Source: Clostridia bacterium (GTDB lineage: Bacteria > Bacillota > Clostridia > UMGS1883 > UMGS1540). Taken from it: a DNA stretch of 64,000 bases. Positions 5,011-13,439 of this stretch are shown piece after piece; within the stretch, counting starts at the first letter, position 1, and the number at the start of each line of letters is the position of its first letter. The notes under the pieces were generated by a model. It did not search any database and was not told the DNA's origin. It saw nothing but the letters and a program-made list of their open reading frames with translations. Location: assembly GCA_045590195.1 (NCBI GenBank), contig JAZNQN010000044.1:100889-164888 (forward strand), read 5' to 3'. Made by a program: the position numbers and the translations under genes.

Positions 5011-5041
5011 AATTATACTATATTGATATTTTGGTGATTTG

Positions 5042-5881
5042 ATGAAATCCAAACTATACAAAAGCGACAGTTATGTTAGCCGAGATACGGGCTTTACACT
5101 GCGAATGAACTATAGCTTTACTGAAAATTTTGAATTGCACCACCATGATTATTACGAATTTTTCTTAACCCTTTCAGGTAAAGCGATTCAGGAAATTAAT
5201 GGCAAAAGGCAATCTCTGCCTGAGAGAAGCCTTGTTTTAGTGCGCCCGGGCGATGTTCATACGTATATTAAAGAGGGCGAATTTTCTTTTGTTAATTTAA
5301 CTTTTACAAGTGATACTATGAAAAAGCTTTGCGATTACTTTGGCAGCTCACTTGAAAATATTATTAAAAAAGAAATTCCTCCAACTGTAATTTTAAGCCG
5401 CGAAAATTTTGATTCAGTTTTTGAAAAACTGAATAATCTCAATACAATAAGCCTTAGCGATACCGAAAAGGCTAACCTTAAAATGAAGCTTATTTTAACA
5501 GATATAATGGCTTTTATTATTGAAGGCGATAGCGAGAGAAGCCGCTCACTTGCGCCATTATGGCTTTCCTCTCTTGTTCTTCATTGTAAAAAGGCAGAAA
5601 ATATAAATATAACCCTTCAGGAAATGGCAGAATTTTCAAATAAAAGCAGAGAACATATTTCAAGATGTTTTAAAAAGTATTACGGGGTTACTGTTGCCCA
5701 GTTTATGAACGAACAAAAACTAAATTACAGCGCAAATTTACTGCTTAACAGCAATCTGCCCGTAATTGATATTTGTTATGAATGTGGCTTTCAGAATTTA
5801 AGTTGGTTTTATAGAAAATTCAAAGAAAAGTTTGATTTAACTCCCCATCAGTTCAGAAAAAATGCGGGATTTAATACATAA
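5042..5881 (+). CDS. AraC-family transcriptional regulator (cupin N-domain + HTH)
   Basis: N-terminal cupin-like domain and C-terminal AraC HTH (QFMNEQKLNYSANLLLNSNLPVIDICYECGFQNLSWFYRKFKEKFDLTPHQFR). ATG at 5042 is preceded by GGTGA; the track start at 5039 is TTG. Confidence 0.88.
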   Translation: MKSKLYKSDSYVSRDTGFTLRMNYSFTENFELHHHDYYEFFLTLSGKAIQEINGKRQSLPERSLVLVRPGDVHTYIKEGEFSFVNLTFTSDTMKKLCDYFGSSLENIIKKEIPPTVILSRENFDSVFEKLNNLNTISLSDTEKANLKMKLILTDIMAFIIEGDSERSRSLAPLWLSSLVLHCKKAENINITLQEMAEFSNKSREHISRCFKKYYGVTVAQFMNEQKLNYSANLLLNSNLPVIDICYECGFQNLSWFYRKFKEKFDLTPHQFRKNAGFNT

Positions 5882-5915: not shown

Positions 5916-7019
5916 TTAATTTATTTTTACGTTTTCCCAAAGAGTATTAAGATATCCCATCATATCAGTATCAAGATTTCGGAAAGCAAATTTATTATAT
6001 TTTTCCGAAAAGCTTCCAAGCTCAGGATAAAGAATTTCCATTGCCTTTTCGCCCATATCATCTTTATATGTTTCGTTATTATAAACAAGGCTGTTTGGCG
6101 ATGCATAACAGGTTGCCTTTGCATTTGCAACGGCAGGCTCTTCAGAGAGCATATAGTTTATAAATATTTCGGCAAGTTCTTTATTTTGTGCACAAGAAGG
6201 AATACACATAGCATCTACATAGAAGTTTGTTTGTTCAGGATAATAAATCTGAAGGTCAACATTTTCCGCCTGAGCCTCTGCCATTGTGAAATAGTCGCCA
6301 GCGTAATATGCACCAATTGCCGCTTCGCCCGATTCCATCATATTAAATATTTCGTCCATAACGTAGCTATATACATAAGGGCGCTGAGCAACAAGCTCTT
6401 CAAAGGCATCGTCCCAGTCGGCTTTGTTTGTTGAGTTTACATCGAGTCCAAGTTTGTAAATTGCAGTTCCAAATGCATCGCGAAGGTTATTAAACTGTAA
6501 AATACTTCCGCTGTATTTTTCGTTCCACATTAAATCCCAGCTACCGGTATCGGCTTTGTCAACAATATTGGCATCGTAAATTATACCAACTATGCCATAT
6601 GCATAAGGAATTGTGTATTTATTATCTTTATCATAATAAAGGCCTTTGAAAGTATCATCAATGTATTTATAATTTGGTATATTTTCAAAATTCAGTGGCA
6701 ATAGTAAATTCTCGTCAGCCATTTTTGCTATCATATAGTCAGATGGAATAATAACATCGTAGCTAACCGCTCCGCTTGAAATTTTGTTATACATATCTTC
6801 GTTTGAAGCAAATGTAGTATAATTTACGGTTATCTTTTGGCCATAAGTTTCTTCATACCATTTTTCAAATTCGCGGATAGTATCAAAGCTGCCTTCGCTT
6901 CCATCAGAAATATATTCGCCCCAGTTATATACATTAAGGGTTACTTTATTCCCGCCACAACCGCCAAAAAGCGGCAACATTATTAAAAGTGAAACTAAAA
7001 CTGCAATTATTTTTTTCAT
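5916..7019 (-). CDS. potD: ABC transporter substrate-binding lipoprotein, PotD (spermidine/putrescine) family
   Basis: Lipoprotein signal peptide (LFGGCGG), PotD-like length and motifs, last gene of an ATPase-permease-permease-SBP operon. Confidence 0.8.
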   Translation of the reverse strand: MKKIIAVLVSLLIMLPLFGGCGGNKVTLNVYNWGEYISDGSEGSFDTIREFEKWYEETYGQKITVNYTTFASNEDMYNKISSGAVSYDVIIPSDYMIAKMADENLLLPLNFENIPNYKYIDDTFKGLYYDKDNKYTIPYAYGIVGIIYDANIVDKADTGSWDLMWNEKYSGSILQFNNLRDAFGTAIYKLGLDVNSTNKADWDDAFEELVAQRPYVYSYVMDEIFNMMESGEAAIGAYYAGDYFTMAEAQAENVDLQIYYPEQTNFYVDAMCIPSCAQNKELAEIFINYMLSEEPAVANAKATCYASPNSLVYNNETYKDDMGEKAMEILYPELGSFSEKYNKFAFRNLDTDMMGYLNTLWENVKIN

Positions 7020-7849
7020 TTGGAAGTCCTCCCTTTTGCTTTCTTTTTATTAAGTTTTTTCATATCATCGTTATCAATAACATTGCTAATTAAAAGAAGT
7101 GCCATTGTTACAAAGAAAATAATGGTTGCAAGGGCATACATTTTCGGTGTAACAGTTTTTTTGGTCATACTGTAAATTCTGATAGGTAAAGTTTCAAAGC
7201 CGTTTCCTGAGGTAAAATAGCTTATTACAAAATCATCAAGCGAAAGAGTAAACGCCATAATAGCCCCTGTTATAATACCGGGCAGAATTTCAGGCAATTC
7301 AACCTTTAAAAAAGCTTTAAGCGGTGTACAGCCTAAATCCATTGCCGCTTCAGGAAGGGATTTATCCATCTGGCGAAGCTTCGGTAACACCTGCAAAATT
7401 ACATAGGGTGTACAAAAAGCAACGTGAGCTATAAGCATTGTTAAAAAGTTAAGGCTTGTTGATGCGCCGAAAAATCTTCCAACAAATACAAACATAAGCA
7501 TTAGTGAAATACCTGTTATAATATCAGGATTTGTCATAGGAAGGTCGGTAACGGTGTTCATAGCCGCACGATACCATTTTGAGCGGAGCTTATTTATTCC
7601 AACTGCCGCAAAAGTTCCCATAACTGTTGAAATAGCCGTTGCCGCAGTTGCAAGAATAAGCGTATTTTTTACGGCTTCAAGAGTATTTCTGTCACTTAAA
7701 AGCTCTTTATACCATTTAAGCGAAAAGCCCGAAAAAACCGATAAACTTTTCGATTCATTAAACGAGAAGAAAAGCAAAACAAGTATGGGAGCAAACAAAA
7801 AGCCAAAAATAACTGTGCTGTATATTTTAGATGACATTTTCATTTTCAC
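7016..7849 (-). CDS. potC: ABC transporter permease, PotC-like
   Basis: 6-TM permease with the ABC permease EAA-like region; 4-nt overlap with neighbouring genes. Confidence 0.85.
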   Translation of the reverse strand: MKMKMSSKIYSTVIFGFLFAPILVLLFFSFNESKSLSVFSGFSLKWYKELLSDRNTLEAVKNTLILATAATAISTVMGTFAAVGINKLRSKWYRAAMNTVTDLPMTNPDIITGISLMLMFVFVGRFFGASTSLNFLTMLIAHVAFCTPYVILQVLPKLRQMDKSLPEAAMDLGCTPLKAFLKVELPEILPGIITGAIMAFTLSLDDFVISYFTSGNGFETLPIRIYSMTKKTVTPKMYALATIIFFVTMALLLISNVIDNDDMKKLNKKKAKGRTSK

Positions 7850-8721
7850 TCACCCCCATATACATATTTGGCCGTAACATATTTTACAAGCGCCATAGCA
7901 ACGAGCAAAATTGCCATAAGAATAAATGCAATCGCCGCCGCAAAGTGAAGATTATTTGCAATATATTGGCCTTCAATAGCATCGCCTATGAGGAAAAACT
8001 TTCCGTTACCAAGCTTTTGCGAGATATAAAATGTGCTGATAGAAGGAATTAAAACCATAGTAATTCCCGATACAATACCCGGCATACTTAAAGGAAAAAC
8101 AACTCTTTTCATAACAGAAAAGCTGCCACAGCCAAGGTCTCTCGCGGCTTCTAAAAGGTTTAAATCAAGCTTTGCCAAAATTGAGTAAATAGGCAAAACC
8201 ATATATGGAAAATAATCGTAAACCATACCAATTATAACTGCAGTTTCCGTTCCTATAACGCTTATTGGCATTATGCCTAATTTAGAAAGAGCAGTATTTA
8301 TAATACCGGTATCCTGCAAAATAGTCATCCATGCGTATGTTCTTATAAGAAAGTTCATCCACATTGGAATCATAATAAGAGTAACCATTGTTTTTTGAGT
8401 TTTTTCTTTGGCACGTGCCATAATGTAAGCGATAGGATATCCCATTAAAAGGCACACTGCCGTTGAAATTACTGCAAGTTTTAAAGACCTTGCAAAAATT
8501 AAAAGGTAAGTACGAACTTCTCGGGTTGAGCCATCGTCTTCCAAAACATTACTTGTTGCCGTAAAAAAGCGAGTAATATTTTCAGTTGTGAAAGCAAAAT
8601 TATTGTCAGTAAAAGCATAATAAGCCACGAATATAAGCGGAACTATTACAAAAAGAACCGACCATACCGAGTATGGCGCAAGTGCCGCACGGTATGTATT
8701 TTGATTGTTTATTTTTTTCAT
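7846..8721 (-). CDS. potB: ABC transporter permease, PotB-like
   Basis: Polytopic permease, translationally coupled to potA and potC. Confidence 0.85.
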
Positions 8722-9836
8722 TCTTCGCCTTCACCTCCGGGGTTTGAAAGCTCGTCAAGCTCATTTGAAAACGAAGAATAATCGCCAAACATACCTGAAT
8801 ATTTCGATTTTTTCATAATGTGAATTGCATCAGGATCAAGAGAAATTCCGATATAAGAATCTTCGTAAACGGGGTCGGTTGTCTGAATCATCCATTTAAA
8901 GCCGCCAATATCAACAATTGCCTCGTTATGAACGCCCATAAATGTTACAGAAGTAACTTTTCCGCAAAGCATTCCATTGTCAGGCGATACAATGTCAACA
9001 TCTTCAGGGCGGATAACAACATCAACTGCCTCGCCCTTTTCAAAACCTTTGTCAAGGCATGAAAAAGTATGTCCGCCAAATGAAACTTTAAAATCTTCAA
9101 GCATAACGCCGTCAACTATGTTACTTTCGCCAATAAAATCGGCAACAAAGGCGTTTGCAGGCTCGTTATAAATATCTGTTGGCGTGCCGATCTGCTGAAT
9201 TTTACCCTCGCTCATAACAACAATTGTGTCAGACATACTGAGGGCCTCTTCCTGATCGTGAGTTACAAATATAAATGTAATTCCGGTATTTTTCTGAATT
9301 TTTTTAAGCTCCTGCTGCATATCTTTACGCAGTTTTAAATCAAGTGCACCAAGAGGTTCGTCAAGAAGTAAAACCTTTGGCTCGTTAACAAGCGCTCTCG
9401 CTATGGCAACCCTCTGCTGCTGACCGCCTGAAAGGCTTGTAACCTTTCTGTCGGCAAAGCCTGAAAGCATAACCATTTTAAGCATTGCGTCAACTTTTTC
9501 TTTAATTTCATCTTTTGGAACTTTTCTCTCTCTTAAAGGAAAAGCCACATTTTCAAATACATTAAGATGGGGAAACAATGCGTATTTCTGAAAAACTGTA
9601 TTTACGTGTCTTTTATGAGGAGGTACATCGTTTATTCTCTCTCCCATAAAAATCACGTCGCCATTGTCGGGGTTTTCAAATCCGCCGATAATTCGAAGAG
9701 TTGTTGTTTTACCGCAGCCTGAAGGGCCAAGCAAGGTAATAAACTCATTGTCGTGAATATCAAGGCTTATGCAGTCGAGAACCATTTCATCGCCAAATGT
9801 TTTGGAAATATTTTTAAGTTCAATGATTTTTTTCAT
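8718..9836 (-). CDS. potA: ABC transporter ATP-binding protein, PotA-like (with C-terminal TOBE-like domain)
   Basis: Walker [10 protein letters not shown], signature [15 protein letters not shown], Walker [12 protein letters not shown]. Start set at MKKIIELKN (9836) with an upstream GGGGA RBS. The 14-codon GTG extension in the track overlaps a terminator hairpin and is rejected. Confidence 0.9.
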
Positions 9837-9863
9837 TTCTATTCCCCTATCTTTTATCGCAGT

Positions 9864-9895
9864 AAAATTAAAAGGCACGCCGAATGCGGCATGCC
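9864..9895 (-). terminator. intrinsic-terminator-like hairpin in the potA 5' leader (attenuator candidate)
   Basis: Minus-strand RNA GGCAUGCCG-cauu-CGGCGUGCC followed by UUUUAAUUUU, ending about 25 nt before the potA RBS. Confidence 0.55.
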
Positions 9896-10232
9896 ACTTG
9901 TAAACAAATATTACGATATTTTACCGATAAATACAGAAAACCCATCACAAAAAATACCGGTATGCTAAATCGCAATCAGATCAGAGTCTATATAGTAAAG
10001 ATTACTTTTACTACTCTTATTGACCATTTCACAAGCTTATGCCCAAGGCATTTTCGGTTATAAAGTAACCAACTTATAAAACTGAGCTTTTAACTCAATC
10101 AATAAGGCAACTAAAGTCGCCAACCCTAAAGGGTTTTTCGGCATTCGACCCGGCTGTCCGTATGGCCTTAGTCTAAAAATAGACGGTCTTAAATCTTACT
10201 TTGGAAACACTGCTCCAATTGAGATCCATTAA

Positions 10233-10261
10233 AGTATAACATAAAGGATTTAAAAAGTCAA
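10233..10261 (-). promoter_or_regulatory. promoter of the pot operon (minus strand)
   Basis: TTGACT, 17-nt spacer, TATACT on the minus strand, about 385 nt upstream of the potA start. Confidence 0.55.
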
Positions 10262-10485
10262 TAAAAAAATATATTCCACCTGCCAACTTCTTCGCTGCCA
10301 AGCGGAATACCTTCATCAAATTTAAGCTCAAGCTCTGCTTTTACTCTTACCGCCGCCGCACTTGTCAACGCATTTGCGTTCCTCATTTCAACTGCTCTTT
10401 CAAAGTATCCTGTGCCGTTTCCAATTTTAAATCTGTGTTCTGCCATCTGAATCATCTTTGGTTGAATACTTGACAATAGCCTCAT
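10258..10485 (-). CDS. orphan 75-aa ORF, possibly a gene remnant; doubtful
   Basis: Protein-like composition (…AEHRFKIGNGTGYFERAVEMRNANALTSAAAVRVKAELELKF…) but no convincing RBS. An antisense promoter lies inside it. Confidence 0.25.
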   Translation of the reverse strand: MRLLSSIQPKMIQMAEHRFKIGNGTGYFERAVEMRNANALTSAAAVRVKAELELKFDEGIPLGSEEVGRWNIFFY

Positions 10486-10498
10486 TTTGTGGTATCAT
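10470..10498 (+). promoter_or_regulatory. strong sigma-A promoter with extended -10
   Basis: TTGACA, 17-nt spacer, TG-g-TATCAT. Confidence 0.55.
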
Positions 10499-10504
10499 TC
10501 TCTT

Positions 10505-10640
10505 TGAAGCTTTCTTGGTATTAGAGCGCCTCTGGCTTTCAGAGGAAGAGCCGTCGACGCCAGGAAAACTTCTTTTTTGATATGTTATTAATTTTATAGT
10601 AAAAAATGCTGTAACCCTAATGGTTACAGCATTTTTTATT
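10505..10640 (+). ncRNA. candidate small RNA (promoter-to-terminator unit of about 135 nt, no plausible ORF)
   Basis: Bounded by the promoter at 10470-10498 and the terminator at 10608-10640. Internal hairpin CCUCUG-gcuuu-CAGAGG. The only ORF is a 5-codon peptide. Confidence 0.35.
10608..10640. terminator. bidirectional rho-independent terminator
   Basis: GCTGTAACC-ctaat-GGTTACAGC flanked by AAAAAA and TTTTTTATT. Ends the + strand unit and the minus-strand tRNA. Confidence 0.7.
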
Positions 10641-10715
10641 GGAGCTGGTGGCGTGAATCGAACACGTGACCTTTTCATTACGAGTGAAATGCTCTACCGA
10701 CTGAGCTACACCAGC
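10640..10715 (-). tRNA. tRNA-Thr (anticodon CGU), 76 nt with encoded CCA
   Basis: Hand-folded: acceptor GCTGGTG/CACCAGC, D-arm GCTC/GAGC, anticodon stem TTTCA/TGAAA with loop CTCGTAA, T-loop TTCGATT, 3' TCCA. One A:C mismatch at the base of the T-stem. A TTGCGA/TAGAAT-like promoter lies just upstream at 10722-10760. Confidence 0.85.
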
Positions 10716-11042
10716 ATTTACATATTTATATATTATATTCTACCAGGAGTAAAAATGCTTGCTCGCAAGGGCATTTTTACAACGCCGTCAATTGGCATAC
10801 GTAGCCTGAAAGGCTGCAAGCAAGTTAAAAACTCGCAGGAGTTTTGCAAAGCAAAAATACATACATGCCAATTATAATGTAAAAACGCATTTTTGTCAAC
10901 AATTTAATTTTTTTACAAAATATTTTTTAACTAAATTGTTACAATATTTTGTACGGATTTTTTGAAAAAATACACTATTTTGTGGAATATTACGCTTTTT
11001 AATTGCATAGATTAAAAATAAATGTTAAGAAATTTTAAAAAG

Positions 11043-11065: not shown

Positions 11066-11132
11066 TTAATTTTTATGTTATTATTAGCTTCGTTGCCTGA
11101 TGTGGCAACAGTACAGAAAGGAATGAATTTTG

Positions 11133-11693
11133 ATGAAAAAGATTATTTGCGGCGCAATTACGGCTGTATGTATCACAGTTTTTTCAGCCGCAGGAATATC
11201 TGCCGATAAAATTGTAACAACACCTTCAGTAAACGTTTCGGGCAATGAGGCCGAGGCTGATGGTATTGGAACATATTACATTTTAAATGAAAATAACGAG
11301 CTTAAAACATTTAAAGATTTTATCGACAAGTATATTGAAGAAATGAACACTCCCAAATACGAAGCGGTTTTGGAATATGCAAAAAACTTTATTGGTGTTC
11401 CATATGTTTATGGAGGAAGCACTCCACGTGGTTTCGACTGCAGCGGCTTTGTAAAATATGTTTTAAACAATTTTGATATCAATATGCCCCGTAGCTCTTA
11501 CGAACAGATGAACGTTGGCGAAGCTGTTGATGTTTCCGAAATTCAGCCCGGTGACATATTGTTTTTCCGCGGCGGCGGACATGTTGGTTTTTATGTGGGC
11601 GACGGAAATTATCTTCATGCTCCACAAAGCGGACGAACAGTTTCTATCGACCCTCTTACCCGCGACATTTATTGCGCAAGAAGAGTTTTTTAG
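11133..11693 (+). CDS. NlpC/P60-family peptidoglycan endopeptidase (secreted)
   Basis: Signal peptide. YVYGGSTPRGFDCSGFVKYV Cys-active-site motif and a downstream His typical of NlpC/P60. ATG at 11133 has RBS GAAAGGA; the track start is TTG at 11130. Confidence 0.88.
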   Translation: MKKIICGAITAVCITVFSAAGISADKIVTTPSVNVSGNEAEADGIGTYYILNENNELKTFKDFIDKYIEEMNTPKYEAVLEYAKNFIGVPYVYGGSTPRGFDCSGFVKYVLNNFDINMPRSSYEQMNVGEAVDVSEIQPGDILFFRGGGHVGFYVGDGNYLHAPQSGRTVSIDPLTRDIYCARRVF

Positions 11694-11807: not shown

Positions 11808-11856
11808 GAAATAATTATGTTATAATTTTAATTGTTAAATGAGATTGGAGGTATTT

Positions 11857-12483
11857 ATGAGTAAAAAAATATTATCAGTATTATGTATTTTTGTTATTGC
11901 TATTTCTCTTTTTTCTATAAATGTTTCTGCTAATCAATATGTGTATGTAACAGGCGATGCTTTAAACATACGCAATGCCCCTTCAACAGATTCCCCAATT
12001 ATGGGACAGGCTTTGTATGGTGACTCGCTTATTGTTTACGGCAAAGAAGGTAACTGGTACTTAATTTATTACTGGGGCGTTATGGGTTATGTTAGTGGTG
12101 ACTATGTTTCAAATTATCATCCCGATAACAAGCCTACAACCGGCCAGCGAGTTGTGGATTATGCAAAAACCTTTACCGGTATCCCATACGTTTACGGTGG
12201 CAACTCCCCTTCACAGGGATTTGATTGTAGCGGATTTGTAAAATATGTGTTCGCTAACTTCGGTGTTAACCTTCCAAGAACATCTTATTCACAAATGAAT
12301 GTTGGAACCCCTGTTACACGCGATGAACTTATGCCCGGCGACTTGGTTGTTTTCCGTGGCGGCGGACATGTTGGTATTTACTGTGGTGACAATATTTATA
12401 TTCACGCACCTCAGACAGGCAGAACAATTACTGCTGAACCTATGAACAGAGAACTTTACTGTGCAAGAAGACTTGTATACTAA
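11857..12483 (+). CDS. SH3b-domain + NlpC/P60-family peptidoglycan endopeptidase (paralog of the previous gene)
   Basis: Signal peptide, SH3_3-like region (YVYVTGDALNIRNAPSTDSPIMGQALYGD…), then YVYGGNSPSQGFDCSGFVKYV and the catalytic His. Start at 11857 has a GGAGG RBS. Confidence 0.88.
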   Translation: MSKKILSVLCIFVIAISLFSINVSANQYVYVTGDALNIRNAPSTDSPIMGQALYGDSLIVYGKEGNWYLIYYWGVMGYVSGDYVSNYHPDNKPTTGQRVVDYAKTFTGIPYVYGGNSPSQGFDCSGFVKYVFANFGVNLPRTSYSQMNVGTPVTRDELMPGDLVVFRGGGHVGIYCGDNIYIHAPQTGRTITAEPMNRELYCARRLVY

Positions 12484-12563: not shown

Positions 12564-13439
12564 TTATTTATTGGATATGTAAATTCCTCCTGCAATAAGT
12601 AAAAACGACGCAAGGTACTGAATTTGAAAAATGTTCTCGCCAAGAATAATTGCCCCGAACACGCATGCAAAAAGCGGCTCGGCAAATTTAATGATAAATA
12701 AATTTGAAAGGTGGCCTTTATCAAGGAGCAAGTACCACATACAGTAGCTTGAAACTGATGCAAAGCAAATATAAAGCAGAATAAGAAGTGACGTGTCAAA
12801 TCTGAAAACCATTCTGCCACCCATGGCAAAACCAACCACAAGCAGTATCACGCCGCCAAAAATCTGTGAAATACCAGCCGATGTTATGGGGTTTACAGTT
12901 TTAAAAACATTTTTGCCGATTACGTTTGAAAAGACTGTGCAAAGTGATGCTGCAATTATAAAAGCATCTCCAAGGGTAAAGGATATTCCTGTAATATTGG
13001 TATTTATCGCAACAATGCCTAAAAATCCAAGCACTACACCAACAACCTTTTTCCATGTAACGTGGTCATCTTTAATAAAGAAAGATGAAAAGCAAACATA
13101 CAAAAGTGCACCAATTTGTTTTAAAATTGCAGTTTTTGAGCTGTCGGTTGAAGTAAGCGCTGCATATGTAAAGCCATAATGAAGTATAATGGCAAAAAAG
13201 CCAATCATAAAAATTGAAAAAAGCTTTGGCTTTGCGCTTTTAAACGACGATTTGTTATTTATGAAGGAATAACCGAAAATAACCGCTCCGCAAATTACAA
13301 ATCTTACACCGGCGAAAAAAAGAATATCGCCTGTACCGGAAATATCATACGCTTTAAACCCAAGCTTTACCATGGGGAAAAGTGTTCCCCACAGAAGCAT
13401 TACAATAAGCGCTTTAATAATATTACTTTTTTTACTCAT
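12564..13439 (-). CDS. EamA/DMT-family drug/metabolite transporter (10 TM)
   Basis: Two EamA-like halves, hydrophobic throughout, 291 aa. Confidence 0.8.
   Translation of the reverse strand: MSKKSNIIKALIVMLLWGTLFPMVKLGFKAYDISGTGDILFFAGVRFVICGAVIFGYSFINNKSSFKSAKPKLFSIFMIGFFAIILHYGFTYAALTSTDSSKTAILKQIGALLYVCFSSFFIKDDHVTWKKVVGVVLGFLGIVAINTNITGISFTLGDAFIIAASLCTVFSNVIGKNVFKTVNPITSAGISQIFGGVILLVVGFAMGGRMVFRFDTSLLILLYICFASVSSYCMWYLLLDKGHLSNLFIIKFAEPLFACVFGAIILGENIFQIQYLASFLLIAGGIYISNK

Follow-up and report, generated by a model that had tools for sequence, protein, structure and literature searches.

The potABCD operon of a Clostridia bacterium (GTDB lineage Bacteria; Bacillota; Clostridia; UMGS1883; UMGS1540) encodes a polyamine importer and is preceded by a leader of ~390 nucleotides (nt), counting from a probable transcription start near 10226 to the ATG of potA at 9836. 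The question raised by this locus is what the leader is and how it might control the operon. It was analyzed within a stretch of 64,000 nt (NCBI GenBank assembly GCA_045590195.1, contig JAZNQN010000044.1, positions 100,889 to 164,888 of the forward strand), hereafter referred to as the window; positions are counted from its first letter, and the leader and operon are read from the minus strand. A preliminary description, made from the sequence alone, had proposed a cis-regulatory attenuator or riboswitch for a polyamine importer and had regarded the RNA as possibly undescribed. The attenuator proposal is supported by the conserved leader, the position of its terminator, and a recurrent antiterminator pairing. 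The leader is a full-length member of the known orphan ldcC-motif RNA family, and the association of this family with potA has already been published. On balance, we lean toward the reading that the leader acts as an attenuating off-switch of the ldcC family that responds to polyamine status.

Identity of the potA leader and genes downstream across the family

Scanning of the whole 64-kb window against Rfam 15 gave two matches at gathering level, RF02440 (SpF59 small RNA [sRNA], or ldcC RNA) and one tRNA. The RF02440 match lay at 10189-10138 on the minus strand, covered model positions 1-54 of 54 (cmscan, E = 3e-10), and scored 68.5 bits, well above the gathering score of 37.2. No other Rfam family, including T-box, SAM-I, and M-box, reached E <= 1 in 9700-10800. 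The leader, for which the preliminary description had found no match among known aptamers, does match a catalogued RNA family.

The ldcC motif was described as a bulged hairpin with a possible pseudoknot of invariant nucleotides, widespread in Firmicutes, located in the 5' untranslated regions (UTRs) of PotA and of arginine, ornithine, and S-adenosylmethionine (SAM or AdoMet) decarboxylase genes, and possibly tied to polyamine homeostasis (Weinberg et al. 2017, PMC5737381). The core of the leader is this element, already reported upstream of potA, and the RNA is therefore not undescribed. Rfam types RF02440 as "Gene; sRNA," under a name that comes from a Streptococcus sRNA. No later paper giving a ligand or mechanism for ldcC/SpF59 was found in the searchable literature. 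The statement that no characterized polyamine riboswitch exists was outdated, as a spermidine riboswitch has been validated (Salvail et al. 2023, PMC10853860).

One genome per species was scanned for exact matches to the 20-nt core AAGGCCATACGGACAGCCGG, which gave at least 120 loci. The matches listed include Oscillospiraceae, Lachnospiraceae, Christensenellaceae, Peptococcaceae, Paenibacillus, many Bacillaceae, Brevibacillus, and Acidaminococcus, and those nearest to the window are Oscillospiraceae. A PotA homolog lies downstream in 19 of the 120 listed loci, the closest listed being those of Faecousia sp. and UMGS1484 (88% identity). When the first substantial gene downstream was tallied by Pfam domain, it was a polyamine gene in 109 of 110 listed loci: an Orn/Lys/Arg decarboxylase in 36, an AdoMet decarboxylase in 29, a saccharopine-dehydrogenase-like protein (carboxy(nor)spermidine dehydrogenase type) in 24, and a PotA-type ABC ATPase in 20. 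The sole exception, an FtsJ-like methyltransferase, was taken to belong to L093 (6443, oriented coordinates). This is also the only listed locus at which the family profile described below matches no more than a 26-nt core, and it is probably either a degenerate copy or a chance match.

Extent and structure of the conserved domain

Sixteen potA-type leaders were used to build an nhmmer profile, which matched nearly all 120 listed loci over ~240 positions (profile ~20-260, E ~1e-30 to 1e-55), independently of taxon and downstream gene, and separated family members cleanly. It matched the window once, at 10228-9959, with 240 bits. Beyond the motif core, ~190 further nt are common to nearly all 120 listed loci. 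The limits of conservation are sharp, with no counterpart in related loci for the sequence upstream of the promoter or for the spacer that follows the domain. About 100 nt of the domain, single-stranded stretches included, hardly vary across Bacilli, Clostridia, and Negativicutes. Folded alone, the domain has a minimum free energy (MFE) of -76.9 kcal/mol (z = -4.0), and none of 200 shuffles folded as well. These comparisons suggest a conserved RNA roughly five times as long as its database model. Conservation of the leader in related genomes had been named beforehand as a test of the proposal; the promoter position, the domain, and the terminator all recur there. Lineage-specific insertions of 25-170 nt are found inside the domain in L111, L054, L066, L076, L102, and L120 (after UUAUUGA in L111, inside the AGAGU...ACUCU block in L066), and they reveal positions that tolerate extra hairpins.

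Structure was assessed on a MAFFT alignment of 107 sequences, by comparing a hand-derived structure with versions in which the 3' partners were slid and with shuffles. As drawn, 89% of cells were paired, versus 32-46% with slid partners and 85.6% after shuffling. The covariation score was 0.145 as drawn, versus 0.02-0.05 slid and 0.095 shuffled, and none of 500 shuffles reached the observed value. RNAalifold on the same alignment supported the local hairpins by compensatory changes and missed every long-range helix; the MFE fold of the domain recovered most of the drawn helices. RNAduplex on whole flanks was noisy and over-extended, and tests of own versus swapped strands were used instead.

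The closing helix, P1, brings together the very start of the transcript and the 3' end of the domain, and its sequence varies by lineage: UCUCAAU/AUUGAGA in potA-type members, GUCUG/CGGAC in L007, and AAUAUUCAA...GGAUC/GAUCC...UUGAAUAUU in Bacilli. Across the family, own flanks pair better than swapped ones (p = 9e-10). A second, long-range helix is formed between the strand that separates the 5' hairpin from the ldcC stem and the stretch before UUGCUAUAU. Here 8.3 bp form between own strands and 6.8 bp between swapped ones (p = 4e-12), and the compensatory pairs are of many types; the window differs from its nearest relatives L055, L065, and L101 by one double change from C-G to U-A. Individual pairs of the ldcC motif stems show double-sided changes in 29-45 of the 107 sequences, and the variable AUGCC..GGCAU hairpin exchanges UA and CG at one pair (34 versus 32 sequences).

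The extra hairpin at 10134-10123 is found only in potA-associated members, where its stem sequences differ, and is absent from the others. A UUAGGGUUGG stretch that had been likened loosely to a T-box consists of this hairpin and the start of the next one, and is not T-box-like. That next hairpin, at 10121-10106, was considered as a weak terminator and rejected, being a co-varying structural hairpin followed by invariant UUAUUGAUUG. Within the near-invariant block at 10017-9983, a local hairpin AGUAAA/UUUACU showed no double-sided changes; the long-range helix, which co-varies and shares its 3' strand with this hairpin, was favored. GACUCU could pair with either of two conserved segments, the AGAGU inside the block or the 5' AGAGUC of many lineages; judged from the alignment, the AGAGU/ACUCU region could be either a pseudoknot or a site where GACUC pairs with the 5' GAGUC seen in other lineages. 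Bacilli that carry a 5' GGAUC (before CUUUCC) pair it instead with GAUCC just downstream, and lineages seem to differ in the register of their inner closing helix.

Terminator, antiterminator, and a candidate off-switch

The promoter that had been placed far upstream of potA was recovered by a consensus scan as TTGACT-17-TATACT at 10261-10233 (minus strand); 10 of its 12 bases agree with the consensus, and it has a TG extension. The same scan found no second minus-strand promoter-like site from there down to potA, and 11 potA-type relatives have strong promoters at the same position relative to the domain. Transcription would start near 10226, ~7 nt past the -10 element.

The hairpin and U-tract noted before potA were also confirmed. 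The hairpin is GGCAUGCCG-CAUU-CGGCGUGCC at 9895-9874 (-16.8 kcal/mol), followed by UUUUAAUUUU at 9873-9864. The U-tract ends 27 nt before the ATG and ~15 nt before the ribosome-binding site (RBS), not 25 nt before the latter as first described. The terminator caller starts this stem at GGCAUGCCG, so that ACAAGU just upstream falls outside it. Across the family, an intrinsic terminator was called in 74 of the 104 listed loci that have enough downstream sequence, starting a median of 85 nt past the domain. All 20 potA-type loci have one within ~140 nt of potA, mostly 19-74 nt upstream, with differing stem sequences at a conserved position. Spacers of 50-130 nt between domain and terminator are typical. 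In the window, the spacer (9905-9967) has its own ~45-nt hairpin, predicted in both conformers described below, and a spacer of this kind might govern the time available to the switch, perhaps by pausing.

The 5' arms of the terminators share CAAG(U/C)nGUG, which is complementary to one strand of an internal helix of the domain, the invariant ...ACUUGUG. When arms were slid along the leader, duplex energies had a single sharp minimum at this strand (mean of -11.4 versus -5.7 kcal/mol for shuffled arms), and it was the global minimum in 58% of loci versus 2.8% for shuffled arms. Own arms also paired better at the switch strand than swapped ones (-12.7 versus -11.0, p = 3e-5), as did the variable part alone (p = 0.02). 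In the window, the 3' half of the antiterminator is formed by UUUACAAGU (9904-9896) and AUGCC (9892-9888). This UUUACAAGU..AUGCC segment is predicted to pair with GGCAU..GCUUGUGAA (10043-10028) at -17.8 kcal/mol, the best duplex in the whole leader and comparable to the terminator hairpin. The folding search for an antiterminator alternative, which had been suggested at the outset, thus found one that recurs across the family. For nascent RNA ending at 9883, before the 3' arm of the terminator, the folded-domain and antiterminator conformers have energies of -92.7 and -91.7 kcal/mol, respectively; with the 3' arm and U-tract included (RNA to 9864), the values are -106.1 and -100.2 kcal/mol. 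The predicted near equality of the two states before the 3' arm appears is what a balanced switch would show. In silico, the conserved domain is coupled to an expression platform of mutually exclusive structures, as expected of a riboswitch.

We propose that the transcript from ~10226 would first make a closed multi-helix domain of ~260 nt (10226-9968), in which the internal strand GGGCAUAAGCUUGUGAAA (10044-10027) has two possible partners. In the folded domain, GGGCAUAAGCUUGUGAAA would pair with UUUUAUAAGUU (10081-10071), and the hairpin at 9895-9874 with its U-tract would be free to terminate transcription before potA. In the unlocked domain, it would pair with UUUACAAGU..AUGCC (9904-9888) as an antiterminator that takes up 5 of the 9 nt in the 5' arm of the terminator, allowing read-through into potABCD. 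Stabilization of the folded domain would lead to termination and turn the operon off. Since nearly every family member precedes genes for polyamine synthesis or uptake, the signal would be polyamine sufficiency, and the control of synthesis and uptake genes alike makes a switch that is off when polyamines are plentiful coherent. The off direction of the switch is our inference from this pattern. The effector would most likely be a polyamine that binds the RNA directly, which would make the domain a riboswitch; spermidine, the end product shared by the regulated pathways, is one such candidate.

Several observations weigh against this proposal. The extreme sequence invariance of the domain also fits recognition by a protein or other macromolecule, and no ligand has been shown for the ldcC family in the searchable literature. 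The energies are nearest-neighbor predictions that ignore tertiary structure and kinetics, and the exact 20-nt core match biases the loci toward well-conserved members. The window's own P1 has a mismatch and ranks 0.45, which is not significant alone. The UUAUUGA/UCAAUAA and UUUUAUAAGUU/AACUUGUGAAA helices are at least 97% paired but almost invariant, and are consistent with pairing only. Finally, 30 of the 104 listed loci, mostly Bacillaceae and Paenibacillaceae, have no terminator within 330 nt under the criteria used.

Loci without a called terminator include L002, L015, L024, L033, L036, L048, L053, L059, L060, L063, L068, L070, L074, L089, L098, L104, L106, and L109, among others. A GCUUUC conserved in their 3' flank is able to pair with a 5' GAAAGC. 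Their terminators may be imperfect, or another kind of expression platform, possibly a translational one, may be in use.

A broader idea, which we hold tentatively, is that a second, far more widespread class of polyamine-sensing riboswitches exists across Bacillota and has the 260-nt domain as its actual aptamer; we rate it at somewhat below even. Such a class would put a polycation sensor over decarboxylases, AdoMet decarboxylase, the carboxyspermidine pathway, and PotABCD uptake, and the orphan status of the family would then result from recognition and modeling of the 54-nt core only. The ldcC motif precedes polyamine synthesis or uptake genes in well above a hundred species, including major gut Clostridia. 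To our knowledge, polyamine sensing has no established mechanism in most Firmicutes, and the only validated polyamine riboswitch belongs to a class with 13 known representatives. If the functional unit is the 260-nt domain with a defined switch strand, it offers a concrete construct and mutants that could be tested with spermidine and related amines; any earlier probing of the 54-nt core alone would then have been uninformative, and the boundaries of the Rfam model would need revision. For the window itself the outcome is more ordinary, an instance of a catalogued RNA family. The positions of all features are collected in Table 1.

Table 1. Features of the pot leader and operon in the window, from promoter to potD; helices and pairings are predicted
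Feature	Positions	Strand	Basis or remark
Sigma-70-type promoter with TG extension	10233..10261	-	Consensus scan; recurs in relatives
Whole structured domain (extended ldcC domain), ~260 nt	9968..10226	-	nhmmer profile; MFE z-score
Closing helix P1, 5' strand GAUCUCAAU	10218..10226	-	Pairs with 9976-9968, one U-C mismatch
5' hairpin UGGAG-CAGUGU-UUCCA	10202..10217	-	Sequence reading; GGAAAG...CUUUCC in relatives; poorly aligned
Long-range helix, 5' strand AGUAAGAUU	10192..10200	-	Pairs with 10003-9994; covariation
ldcC motif/SpF59, bulged hairpin with invariant AAGGCCAUACGGACAGCCGG (10169-10150) and tail AAUGCCGA (10145-10138)	10138..10189	-	RF02440
Extra variable hairpin ACCC-UUUA-GGGU	10123..10134	-	Alignment
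Conserved hairpin GGCGAC-UUUA-GUUGCC	10106..10121	-	95% paired in 107 loci; 24-28 double-sided changes at two pairs
Helix strand UUAUUGA	10099..10105	-	Pairs with UCAAUAA 10023-10017; 99% paired; in MFE fold
Hairpin UUGAGU-UAAAA-GCUCAG	10082..10098	-	95% paired; double-sided changes at 4 pairs
Switch helix, 5' strand UUUUAUAAGUU	10071..10081	-	Pairs with 10037-10027; 97% paired, few changes; in MFE fold
Two hairpins inside the switch helix: GGUUA..UAACC (10070-10056) and variable AUGCC..GGCAU (10051-10039)	10039..10070	-	Alignment
Switch strand GGGCAUAAGCUUGUGAAA: 3' strand of switch helix or 5' half of antiterminator	10027..10044	-	Best leader partner of 9904-9887
Near-invariant block AGAGUAGUAAAAGUAAUCUUUACUAUAUAGACUCU	9983..10017	-	AGAGU/ACUCU can pair; interior is the long-range helix 3' strand
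Long-range helix, 3' strand AAUCUUUACU	9994..10003	-	Covariation
Closing helix P1, 3' strand AUUGCGAUU	9968..9976	-	Pairs with 10226-10218
Non-conserved spacer with predicted local hairpin	9905..9967	-	No similarity in related loci
Expression platform: antiterminator 3' half, terminator stem (9895-9874), and U-tract (9873-9864)	9864..9904	-	Scan; duplex energies; conformer folds
Regulated operon potABCD with RBS	5916..9848	-	NCBIfam PotA, PotB, PotC, and PotD models; open reading frame coordinates
RBS AGGGGA	9848-9843	-	Sequence reading; GGGG is 9847-9844
potA	9836-8718	-	NCBIfam PotA match
potB	8721-7846	-	NCBIfam PotB match
potC	7849-7016	-	NCBIfam PotC match
potD	7019-5916	-	NCBIfam PotD match

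Alternative explanations, related systems, and neighboring genes

An RNA-binding protein or other macromolecule that reflects polyamine status might lock the same domain, with no binding of polyamine by the RNA itself. Protein-mediated attenuation is known from PyrR, TRAP, and ribosomal-protein leaders. All of the evidence for attenuation fits this explanation equally well, the ~100 near-invariant nt with their single-stranded stretches suit sequence-specific recognition, and the years since the 2017 description have brought no reported ligand. The absent ligand says little, however, since any published probing would have concerned the 54-nt core only, and the size, closed architecture, and many helices of the domain resemble those of large aptamers. 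Moreover, no regulator gene recurs immediately downstream, where only enzymes and transporters are found (wider neighborhoods were not surveyed), and we know of no candidate regulator protein for the ldcC element. We consider a protein-mediated mechanism unlikely, although it deserves to be kept in view.

A mainly trans-acting role, in which the leader would be an SpF59-like sRNA with the hairpin at 9895-9874 as its own terminator and potA expressed by constitutive read-through, is much less probable. Rfam's typing of RF02440 speaks for it, and premature termination would free a stable, structured RNA of ~360 nt. Yet the element is co-oriented with, and just upstream of, polyamine genes in 109 of the 110 listed loci, the terminator lies only 27 nt from the potA start codon with no promoter in between, and a conserved, co-varying antiterminator complementarity would serve no purpose in a plain sRNA terminator. 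A secondary trans role of the leader RNA beside its cis role is possible.

Ribosome-mediated attenuation through a small upstream open reading frame (uORF) that senses polyamines, as with speFL or the eukaryotic AdoMetDC uORFs, is very improbable. Polyamine-sensing arrest peptides exist in other systems, and an ATG-started 25-codon open reading frame (ORF) in the window runs through the terminator, but it lacks a Shine-Dalgarno sequence. A small ORF preceded by such a sequence is present in only 11 of 74 leaders, with unrelated peptides, and conservation tracks RNA helices rather than codons; L030, for example, swaps a 25-nt hairpin interior while keeping the stem. The view that the leader has no convincing uORF was confirmed, and the family shows no conserved leader peptide. 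A T-box or another characterized riboswitch class overlooked at first reading would share the leader length and the terminator/antiterminator logic, but is scarcely credible given that RF02440 alone reaches E <= 1 in 9700-10800 and that the associated genes are polyamine genes, not aminoacyl-tRNA-related ones.

Among known systems, the leader agrees with the ldcC motif/SpF59 (PMC5737381) in its invariant bulge sequence, 5' UTR position, phylum, and gene set (decarboxylases and PotA). As published and as modeled in Rfam, however, the motif is a bulged hairpin of 54 nt that may also form a pseudoknot; the conserved unit found here is ~260 nt and has in addition a closing helix, a long-range helix that co-varies, some six more hairpins or helices, and a terminator/antiterminator platform. 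Within Rfam and the searchable literature, the ~260-nt extent, the two long-range helices, and the use of one strand for the terminator/antiterminator switch appear to be new.

The spermidine riboswitch is a SAM-I variant with a proven ligand and 13 known representatives in a few Bacilli genera; it lies upstream of polyamine genes such as ldcC, speE, and speB in Bacillota and is an off-switch that sets an intrinsic terminator against an antiterminator (Salvail et al. 2023, PMC10853860). The ldcC leader likewise precedes polyamine genes, with the same proposed off logic. In contrast to the four-stem SAM-I fold, it has no SAM-clan match at E <= 1 in the window and an unrelated derived structure, it occurs in at least 120 species of Bacilli, Clostridia, and Negativicutes, and its ligand is proposed from gene context.

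In the M-box (ykoK) Mg2+ riboswitch, cation-driven compaction of a large domain sequesters an antiterminator strand and turns expression off. The likeness to the ldcC leader would be one of function only, as there is no sequence or Rfam similarity and ligand and fold differ. T-box leaders (200-300 nt) also make a terminator/antiterminator decision and have conserved sequence in the terminator 5' arm, whereas the pot leader has no T-box model match, specifier, or T-box sequence. The speF, potC, potE, and odc1 motifs are likewise candidate cis-regulators upstream of polyamine genes, but they belong to other phyla, have different structures, and do not match here.

No polyamine-biosynthesis gene was detectable in the 64-kb window. 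Just upstream of the pot leader lies a tRNA-Thr gene (anticodon CGU, 10640-10715, minus strand), with a perfect consensus promoter, TTGACA-17-TATAAT (10871-10899, minus strand), and its own strong terminator (~10606-10637, minus strand). Sub-threshold Rfam matches to VrrA (E = 0.004), Plastid-ycf2, and RAGATH-8 were put down to chance, the first two being opposite-strand readings of this tRNA gene and its terminator. From the terminator of this tRNA gene to the pot promoter, ~340 nt (10258-10605, minus strand) contain a single ORF, of 75 amino acids (10258-10485), with a stop codon that overlaps the promoter's -35 box. Neither Pfam nor NCBIfam gave a match for this ORF, related loci lack a counterpart, and no Shine-Dalgarno sequence is obvious; it may be an orphan gene or non-coding filler. 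An AraC-family regulator (5039-5881, plus strand) is convergent with potD. On the other side of the locus are two tandem NlpC/P60 peptidoglycan hydrolases (11130-11693 and 11839-12483, plus strand), the second with an SH3 domain, and an EamA-family transporter (12564-13439, minus strand).

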